From contig CAVSGI010000010.1 in NCBI GenBank assembly GCA_963727445.1, positions 448,001 through 512,000 on the forward strand: DNA of 64,000 bases, in the 5' to 3' direction. This document shows, piece after piece, positions 39,559 to 40,613 of this stretch. A program made the translations under genes and the position numbers. How positions within the stretch are numbered: position 1 is the first letter of the stretch; each line of letters begins with the position of its first letter. The notes under the pieces were generated by a model. The model ran no database searches, had not been told where the DNA came from, and worked only from the letters and a program-made list of their open reading frames with translations. Source of the DNA: an uncultured delta proteobacterium. GTDB lineage: Bacteria; Myxococcota_A; Polyangia; Polyangiales; B10-G4.

Positions 39559-40613
39559 GGGGACGCTAGATTGACAATTGACTTCTGACGCAACGGAGCG
39601 CCCGTGAGCCCGACAAGGGTCCATGCCCAGAGTTGCTCGTTCCCACTCCCACATTCCAGGTGCAGTCGTCCACGTCATCGTCCGTTTCGTCGACGGTCGC
39701 TTCGTCATCGACGACGAAGCTCGTCAGCACTATCTGAGACTCCTCGCCGCTGCGCTTCGGAGCGTCGATTGGCGACTCATCTCCTTCGCCATGATGAGCT
39801 CGCACATCCATCTCGGTCTCCTGATGGGGTACATGGCCCTCGACGCGTGGGCCAAGAGCCTGCACATCCGATTCGCTCATTGGCTCAACCGGCGGTCGCG
39901 GCGTGACAACCCCAAGACCCTGGGACATGTGATTGCTGACCGGCCCACGACCAAGCCGCTGGCCGTGGGGGGTGCGCGACTGCTCGTTTCGTACCACCAC
40001 CGCAACCCCATCGAGGCGGGCGTGGTCGAAGATGCAGCGTGCTCCGATTGGACGAGCCATCGCGCGTACCTGGGGCTCGCCCAGCCACGCGGTGGGCTGG
40101 ATGTCTCGCTCGGGCTCCGGCTCTGTGGGTTCGACGACTCCCAGCGCGGGCGCCAGGAGCTACATGCTTTCGTACAACAATCGTCAGCGAGCGACTACGC
40201 GGGCCTTTTCCATGGTCCCACCGAAGACGTCGCGGAGCCTGTTTCGAGAACAGCAGCCATCAGCGCGCCGGACCTGATCGCATCGGCATCGGAGGTGCTC
40301 GGTGTCCCGCTGGAACAGGTGATGAGTCGCGCGAGATCACGAGGGGTGGTTCGCGTTCGCCGCGCCGCAATCCTGGTCTGGCTCGAGATGGGCGGCTGCG
40401 CGCGGGAGATCGCCGAGGCGCTTCGTGTCTCGCCCTCCGCGGTGAGCCGGTTGTTGAGCCGCCGACACGACGAAGCGGAGGCGCGGGCCGATGCAGACGT
40501 GGTGGTGCGGGGGCTCGGTCAGAAAGTCGAATTTGTCAATCTAGCGTCCCCGGCTGGTCGGTGCCTGGGCTGGTCGATTGGGGAACAAGTCGAATTGTCA
40601 ATCTAGCGTCCCC
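39559..40613 (+). mobile_element. Inverted-repeat-bounded HUH/Y1 transposase element
   Basis: Left end GGGGACGCTAGATTGACAATTGACTT at 39559-39584; inverted copies at 40523-40551 and 40587-40613. Codon usage appears less GC-biased than the flanks. Confidence 0.85.
39623..40606 (+). CDS. IS200-like/RAYT-superfamily Y1 transposase with C-terminal DnaA_C-like HTH
   Basis: MPR..R...[15 protein letters not shown] (HUH), [11 protein letters not shown]...WTSHRAYLG (catalytic Tyr); C-terminal [15 protein letters not shown]...[18 protein letters not shown]. Confidence 0.85.

Follow-up and report, generated by a model that had tools for sequence, protein, structure and literature searches.

Tyrosine transposase genes lying between long inverted repeats unrelated to GTAG REPs were described under the names TIRtron and TIRYT by Di Nocera, De Gregorio and Rocco in 2013 (PMC3733652). 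In that account the repeats start with a GGGG tip, for which GGGGWSAS is typical of some members and not required, occur as dispersed dimers or clusters, and overlap the 3' end of the gene; the available part of the description gives no inner tandem, helix-turn-helix (HTH) code, scars or mechanism. Quentin et al. (2018) placed 20 of 26 TIRtron examples, all with an HTH, in subclass 2.1 of the TnpA-Y1 transposases, the second-largest Y1 subclass, which occurs in 14.9% of the surveyed strains (PMC6006769). Its division 2.1.2 corresponds to RAYT group 1 of Bertels et al. (2017) (PMC5581495). As far as the accessible text of Quentin et al. goes, only the GGGG consensus was compared with DnaA boxes, and whether the HTH binds DNA or the repeat was left undecided (PMC6006769). 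Our literature search found the TIRtron/TIRYT name only in the 2013 and 2018 papers, whose available parts contain no biochemistry. A search by title and the start of the abstract, to which subscription papers and supplements were closed, returned no TIRtron mechanism, code or mutation halo.

The element beside ligA

We analysed a window of 64,000 nucleotides (the whole stretch of DNA under study) from an uncultured delta proteobacterium, whose genome is represented by a 9.47-Mb assembly (69% GC, 27 contigs, 86% complete). The features of the window on which the analysis draws are the following.

2110..3012, + strand: presumably a LysR-like gene; ends 11 nt before the array
3015..3023, + strand: 9-nt tip stutter before the array, absent from one related-strain contig (depth 2.8, weak)
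3024..3322, no strand assigned: gene-less array of six copies, with + copies at 3024, 3075 and 3125 and - copies ending at 3224, 3273 and 3322
3307..4971, - strand: host gene running into the last array copy, ending ..GTLD*, like ligA
38690..39556, + strand: host gene, outer-membrane-like, ending ..YAF*, with its stop 2 nt from the left tip
39559..39584, + strand: left repeat, 26 bp, with a GGGGACG tip and an inner tandem (ATTGAC twice, period 7)
39623..40606, + strand: TIRYT gene, 327 aa, with an HUH/Y1 core (residues ~14-190), a linker, a DnaA-IV-like HTH (~213-301) and an unstructured read-through tail
39803..39811, + strand: HUH motif H61-I62-H63, both histidines invariant in 14/14 aligned relatives
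39992..40009, + strand: catalytic-type Y124-HHR-N128-P129, the class-2 Y---NP signature, from the sequence and the relatives' alignment
40433..40459, + strand: predicted recognition helix, residues 271-279, in which, across relatives, residue 271 co-varies with repeat base 11, 272 with base 12 and 276 with base 15
40524..40551, - strand: inner right repeat with two inserted bases, traversed by the ORF
40587..40613, - strand: outer right repeat with one inserted base, containing the stop codons of the TIRYT gene and ligA
40598..42742, - strand: host ligA, ending ..MLGTLD*, its last residues coming from the repeat; the congener's ends ..MLE

Elsewhere in the window, the ORF at 44948-47386 appears to join, by fusion or frameshift, two subunits (alpha and beta) of what is presumably a 2-oxoacid dehydrogenase E1, possibly an assembly error. 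Low-complexity coding repeats of 6, 12 or 18 nt lie at 4993-5247 and 6106-6276, and 7196-8134 presumably encodes RCC1-like repeats.

The element is very probably a TIRtron carrying a TIRYT of TnpA-Y1 subclass 2.1, and the earlier note's proposal of a novel system was not borne out, since the design was named in 2013 and has stood in subclass 2.1 since 2018; the note itself had mentioned TIR-flanked Y1 relatives with GGGG-starting ends. It shares with TIRtrons the tyrosine transposase gene between long inverted repeats unrelated to GTAG REPs, the GGGG-starting tip, the dispersed dimers or clusters and the overlap of repeats with the 3' end of the gene (PMC3733652), and its tip, GGGGACGC, agrees with GGGGWSAS at 7 of 8 positions, departing from the consensus by a G at position 7. 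The likeness to subclass 2.1.2 lies in Y---NP (YHHRNP here), a post-core serine motif, a C-terminal Bac_DnaA_C/HTH_23/HTH_28-like domain and the lack of flanking REP hairpins (PMC6006769), host genes reaching to within 2 nt of the repeats or into them. Compared by the published motif table, the element has SHIH rather than NHVH or NH[YF]H and no W/FQ motif (PMC6006769); by these motifs, it appears to form with its best relatives, which carry Myxococcota/Deltaproteobacteria titles, a divergent clade relative to 2.1.2.

REPtrons, RAYT-REPIN systems and E. coli TnpA-REP share with the element the core fold (4ER8), a single-copy gene, many non-autonomous inverted pairs and local tandem arrays (PMC3333891, PMC8266576). 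In contrast to REPtrons of subclasses 2.2 and 2.5, the element has coding flanks and no GT[AG]G-footed hairpins or GTAG guide, and neither GTAG nor GTGG was found at its left end; from TnpA-REP it differs by the added HTH and by scar boundaries that appear to be set by distance rather than by CT (PMC3333891, PMC8266576). The TnpA enzymes of IS200/IS605 (IS608, ISDra2) have in common with it the Y1 HUH fold, the lack of a fixed target duplication and, as we infer here, a 5'-phosphotyrosine on the element side, whereas the element has Y---NP in place of their Y---Q, is flanked by inverted duplex repeats and not by subterminal hairpins, and has a single gene copy and no tnpB. Plasmid Rep proteins and IS91/ISCR are rolling-circle initiators with separate binding and nicking sites. 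The element would share their logic of binding duplex direct repeats, nicking nearby, extending and running into the flanks, but where they have one origin and one terminator it has two copies that face inward, and its domain layout is unrelated.

The HUH (HIH) and tyrosine (YHHRNP) motifs and the C-terminal HTH, first noted from the letters alone, are present in the 327-aa ORF and conserved in 14 relatives, in whose alignment H61, H63, Y124, N128 and P129 are invariant or nearly so. Pfam profile matches are weak: Y1_Tnp matched below its cut-off (E 4e-4, 20.9 bits, cut-off 23), HTH_23 just below its own (E 3e-5, 24.2 bits, cut-off 24.6), Bac_DnaA_C reached only E 0.067 and was found in 2 of the 14 relatives, and NCBIfam returned no match at E <0.1. 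The description of the HTH as DnaA-like holds by fold. In an AlphaFold model built from the 14-row alignment (pLDDT 83), the tail matches DnaA domain IV (3PVP, 1J1V) with TM 0.74-0.75 over 91-92 columns, and the best PDB match of the model is E. coli TnpA-REP (4ER8, E 3.6e-6), with IS608/IS200 transposases next. The ORF does run through the inner right repeat, as had been noted, and its stop lies within the outer one; because the last 23 residues (305-327) are unstructured in the model (pLDDT <50), the read-through tail is probably accidental.

The TIRYT gene is single-copy in the genome, and at the syntenic place in one congener it is absent beside ligA, where the other neighbouring gene differs too, so that the congener offers no clean empty site. 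The gene itself may be autonomous, as its absence from the congener's site would suggest, although it is present in one copy only. The ligA sequence matches the congener up to the repeat, both flanks of the element appear host-derived to within 0-2 nt of the tips, and no carried 7-8-nt flank is therefore seen here. In a related strain (one public run, short contigs), two contigs hold the left junction and no joint across the element was found.

Repeats, duplications and gene ends

One repeat upstream and two inverted copies downstream lie at the places first noted, although the downstream copies are not the exact 26-mer and carry two and one inserted bases. The first 21 bases of the repeat match nine times in the window against 0.00 expected (100 shuffles). 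The array at 3024-3322 shares the repeat in its six copies, and on its right-hand side a unit of 49 bp, 10 nt of which belong to the outer flank, is repeated perfectly in tandem. Genome-wide, the 26-mer of this family (family 1) occurs exactly 51 times, with 72 copies within 4 edits, and forms 22 loci, each opening with a + copy and closing with a - copy, 21 of them gene-less. The array is thus one of 21 gene-less loci rather than a special non-autonomous partner of the gene, and what had been taken for an autonomous/non-autonomous pair is better described as one gene and many repeats. Interiors measure 23-48 nt in 27 short pairs, while the arms at the TIRYT gene are separated by 939 nt. A family-1 pair folds as a perfect 32-bp stem (-41 kcal/mol), and a single repeat forms no hairpin (0 kcal/mol). 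The repeat contains a TTGACA without a -10 partner and 0 promoter-like sites, and an Rfam scan gave only generic hairpin matches, all below gathering scores.

A second TIRYT at C9:566257-567771 is 41% identical over the core and, as assembled here, has a frameshift between its core and its HTH. Its 27-bp repeat (family 2) is present in 175 copies at 54 loci. The two families have only the tip in common, and neither family's repeats occur within 3 kb of the other family's TIRYT gene. Stutters, carried flanks and the silent-site shift are all most pronounced in family 2. At least three further families of GGGG[AT]C-starting repeats (23, ~21 and 26 copies) lie on contigs C9, C11, C12, C15, C20, C21 and C27, and two further Y1 genes of ~230 aa (C10:985738, C9:168805), with a YVLNN motif and a basic N-terminus, have no adjoining GGGGAC-tipped repeats.

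At 402 repeat copies in 147 loci we found 41 duplications. In 35 of the 41 the outer start is located 6-11 nt outward from the tip (mode 8), and the inner end falls anywhere from base 1 to base 21. Very short duplication units are undetectable; among duplications with at least 6 tip bases, where a shorter start can be detected, 18 of 20 still start at 6-11 nt. Control sites in this genome gave 28 duplications at 7159 sites, with 12 of the 28 in the 6-11 range. In family 2, 27 of 33 duplications overlap 6-12 nt and the inner ends range from 0 to 77; in family 1, two of four perfect duplications overlap 6-12 nt, with starts at 4, 5, 6-9 and 7-11 (control 9 of 1500). Reading by eye gave three duplications of a whole element, which begin 12, 13-14 and 8-14 nt beyond one tip and continue for ~42, 165 and 30 nt past the other. 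A 319-nt duplication at C27:110162-110620 includes a whole gene-less element and ~165 nt of the 3' end of a host gene, a case of flank capture.

Fixed-length target duplications were not found: the loci show 0 nt in 14 of 22 cases and at most 3 nt in family 1, 0 nt in 34 of 38 in family 2, and 0 nt in 66 of 91 relatives, in which offset repeats of at least 6 nt number 4 against ~5 expected. Direct repeats of only 2-5 nt occur at the tips slightly more often than expected (16/91 vs 8), and the 3-nt AGC on both sides of the element here is within chance. Related family-2 ends share the flank from -1 to -7, not -8 (72 pairs, not independent), and a shared flank was not found in the 10 related pairs of family 1. 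No microhomology accompanies 13 of 40 duplications, and no dinucleotide at the scar boundaries was evident by eye. The joining of a fixed 5' side to a variable 3' side, which is not reciprocal and often lacks microhomology, is the pattern expected if a single nick were followed by extension and then resealed by a 5'-phosphotyrosine. Judging by these scars, the inverted repeats that flank the gene, first described as terminal, may be sub-terminal.

Gene ends were taken from a rough custom gene caller (7200 genes, 81% coding). In family 1, 21 of 27 gaps to a gene 3' end measure at most 17 nt, and eight genes stop within a repeat, including ligA and the gene to the right of the array. Of the 78 gaps in family 2, 22 measure exactly 1 nt, and the stop is TAA in 14 of these 22 vs 227 of 7200 genome-wide, an excess that points to a stop provided by the element-carried flank.

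Silent sites near the repeats are shifted. For genes running toward a family-1 tip, the fourfold C/(C+G) is 0.78 at 0-50 nt, 0.74 at 50-150 nt and 0.64 at 150-300 nt, and 0.56-0.57 beyond 300 nt (controls 0.57-0.60); toward a family-2 tip it is 0.87, 0.81 and 0.66 over the same bins. Family-2 genes pointing away show the reverse (0.11 and 0.37), and no reversal is seen in family-1 genes pointing away (0.72 on 36 sites, then 0.56). Counted per gene ending at a tip, 16 of 16 are shifted in family 1 (mean +0.20) and 28 of 28 in family 2 (+0.42), whereas 4577 control genes have a mean shift of +0.015 (sd 0.14) and 0 of 20,000 resamplings reached either family mean. At the element itself, the silent sites in the final 150 nt of the host gene at 38690..39556 are C-shifted, with 20 C against 5 G, and ligA shows a small silent-site shift only, with 18 C/5 G vs 13 C/8 G in the congener. 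Farther out, at 300-3000 nt from family-2 tips, a weaker opposite shift appears (0.50-0.53 toward, 0.63-0.67 away, control 0.58). The relatives' silent sites (0.63 near the tip vs 0.51 at 760-910 nt) were not used as evidence, because gene orientation is uncontrolled there. DNA strands that are left single-stranded for some time accumulate G and T. The outward-running strand is the one gaining G/T, in agreement with the prediction of the nick model set out below, and it is likely, by these comparisons, that the enzyme moves silent letters at neighbouring gene ends.

The HTH tail and the inner tandem

A metagenome scan with the single protein gave no match; an alignment-based scan did. The survey of relatives covered 191 loci, 188 with a match, 170 distinct and 126 with both flanks (including this gene and the C9 gene). 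The proposed survey of homologue flanks turned out in favour of the association, as 88 of 100 relatives with an HTH carry their own inverted repeats, vs 8 of 26 without one; with direct repeats as the control, the counts were 4 of 100 and 8 of 26. Since the HTH profile was made from 14 of the surveyed proteins, divergent tails may be misfiled. Eleven tail-less proteins (L052, L073, L080, L082, L089, L091, L102, L111, L113, L115 and L117; 206-229 aa), with neither HTH tail nor inverted repeat, are close relatives (40-48% identical) and possibly a repeat-less sister group.

The relatives' repeats have two parts, a conserved GGGG[AT]C tip and an element-specific 8-9-bp tandem, with the left copy matching the right one as far as about base 26. 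The GG[AT]C[AG] tip is present in 111 of 120 repeats, its core positions being conserved by construction because this motif was used to find it. Position 7 is a G in 87 of the 111, as in the element here. Bases 9-30 have a period of 8 or 9 (z 11.7 and 13.8, 111 repeats); the best inner period is 9 in 47, 8 in 36 and 7, the value of the element here, in 8 of the 111.

In a first set of 97 of 103 usable element pairs, the top residue/base pairs were 82/10 (Z 8.3), 276/15 (6.6), 271/11 (6.0) and 272/12 (5.8), three of which fall, colinearly, in the predicted recognition helix (residues 271-279, the last HTH helix of the model). Positions 1, 2 and 6 of such a helix are the usual DNA contacts. E276 goes with G15 in 8 of 8 cases, K276 with C15 in 13 of 19 and Q272 with C12 in 34 of 37. 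For the second half-site, residue 276 is again on top (Z 7.0, of 2367 pairs), and residue 82 is outside the top ten.

Five rules were fixed before 100 further loci were fetched. From these we removed 31 loci nearly identical to members of the first set, 14 that had no repeat, 10 lacking the tip motif, 6 whose tips disagreed and 1 that was short, which left 38 pairs. In these held-out pairs, K276 accompanied C15 in 6 of 7 vs 3 of 31, E/Q/L276 accompanied G15 in 4 of 7 vs 3 of 31, and Q272 accompanied C12 in 7 of 9 vs 5 of 29, while the Q271 rule had one case among the 38. Ranked in the held-out set alone, 276/15 was 4 of 5750, 271/11 was 455 and 272/12 was 1071. A code between the core (residues 82, 105-107) and the tip was rejected as it did not replicate: T82 with C10 gave 6/11 vs 11/27 held out, and the G107 pairing failed, with one case only, in the 38 pairs.

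Kin are not independent, and a 135-row tree built without the HTH helices served as control. Tree-independent pairs point the same way (for K276, 6.6 same and 0.2 opposite, of 17), with a median p of 0.03 in two of eight tests and 0.06-0.6 in the rest, uncorrected. By whole-domain similarity, core and HTH are not separated (partial 0.21 each). The element here carries R276, which obeys no clear rule. On these alignments, it is the variable inner tandem, rather than the tip, that tracks the HTH, and a recognition-helix code linking residues to repeat bases is the likely reading.

Proposed mechanism and its alternatives

The DNA itself shows how the element is built, which repeats belong to its family and that these have two parts; it also shows the geometry of the scars, the location at gene ends and the strand-specific silent-site shift. 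On this basis we propose a mechanism of HTH-anchored duplex binding, a nick ~8 nt outside the tip, inward extension and resealing, to which we give, as a whole, a probability of about 0.55. The enzyme is predicted to bind the inner tandem as double-stranded DNA through its HTH tail, with two HTH domains head-to-tail on the 7-9-bp tandem and residues 271, 272 and 276 reading bases 11, 12 and 15. Tyr124 would nick the strand running toward the repeat, ~8 nt outside the GGGG tip, by distance and not by sequence, and would stay on the element-side 5' end, leaving a 3'-OH on the host side; the choice of the cut strand is deduced from parsimony and general mutation biases. A host polymerase would extend the 3'-OH inward, displacing the enzyme-bound strand. 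Resealing after a few bases would yield tip stutters, after 30-80 bases arrays such as that at 3024-3322, and past the far repeat whole-element duplications, while joining to a 3'-OH elsewhere would create a new locus without target duplication. Primer extension followed by resealing would thereby spread and amplify the gene-less repeat pairs. If the free 3' end were trimmed, or if synthesis ran on from the far repeat, the strand heading outward would become single-stranded, which would explain both why repeats creep onto gene ends and why C exceeds G in the last 150-300 nt of those genes. For the BIMEs of E. coli, a nick-extend-reseal model has already been put forward (PMC3333891, Fig. 7B).

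Several points speak against this mechanism: the host-like flanks, the weak family-1 scar and flank signal, the period of 7 and R276, the core-to-tip pairing that did not replicate, the low held-out ranks of 272/12 and 271/11, the mixed outcome of the tree-controlled tests, the small shift in ligA and the slight excess of short direct repeats at the tips. Since host sequence reaches the tips, the mechanism would need repeated imprecise cycles that erode the carried flank, which would be kept only where it supplies a stop.

These flush flanks would be expected if the enzyme cut at the tip, in or next to GGGGAC, so that the repeats are true termini, movement is flush and stutters arise from end trimming and rejoining. 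We consider this unlikely, though the best placed of the alternatives. The tip is the sole family-wide conserved part, and among the short flank-plus-tip duplications of family 2, 13 of 21 could end after base 6 and none reaches beyond base 8. A nick fixed at GGGGAC was our first reading, demoted because of the variable inner end in the 147 loci and the family-2 ends at 0-77. A cut at the tip is contradicted by that spread of 1-21 against a tight outer start, by the family-2 range once full-repeat duplications are counted and by the ~7 nt of flank that family 2 carries, and no tip-less copies were found (0/51 and 0/129).

Slightly less probable still is a cut and exchange of TnpA-REP style on the single-stranded hairpin of a repeat pair, in which the HTH adds only affinity or regulation. 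The core fold is nearest to TnpA-REP, characterised Y1 enzymes require single-stranded DNA (PMC6006769), all 22 family-1 loci are inverted pairs, the short ones with interiors of 23-48 nt, and such a pair folds into a perfect stem. Against this route stand the lone repeat that forms no hairpin, the 939 nt between the arms at the gene, and scar boundaries without an evident dinucleotide (by eye), whereas E. coli TnpA-REP follows a CT rule; moreover, as the hairpin stem is itself duplex, the HTH read-out would still apply. That slippage or repair at inverted repeats by the host yields the arrays and the shift, the enzyme being inactive or a domesticated DNA-binding protein, would suit the single-copy gene and the frameshift, in this assembly, of the second TIRYT despite its larger family, but is improbable in view of the duplications without microhomology, a fixed outer start unexpected from slippage, the same scars at lone repeats beside TIRYT genes, the retained catalytic residues and the gene's absence from the congener's syntenic site.

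A nick outside the tip by an HTH-anchored enzyme thus remains our preferred reading. Its extension to TIRYTs at large, as protein-guided, distance-measuring HUH nickases of duplex DNA whose repeats act as inward-firing rolling-circle origins, with the helix code setting the family and gene ends being rewritten, is tentative and the less probable claim. What would be added to the known TIRtron kind, as read from sequence, is a helix code, a scar geometry and a silent-site halo in a widespread Y1 subclass, and the question of recognition and cutting is now split into specifics: bases, residues, strand and distance. If the mechanism is true, a Y1 enzyme acts on duplex DNA through its HTH, unlike its characterised hairpin-reading relatives, and its repeats reshape gene ends; on the wider, less probable reading, TIRYTs would be re-targetable nick-and-reseal enzymes and local mutators of stop codons and silent sites on one strand.
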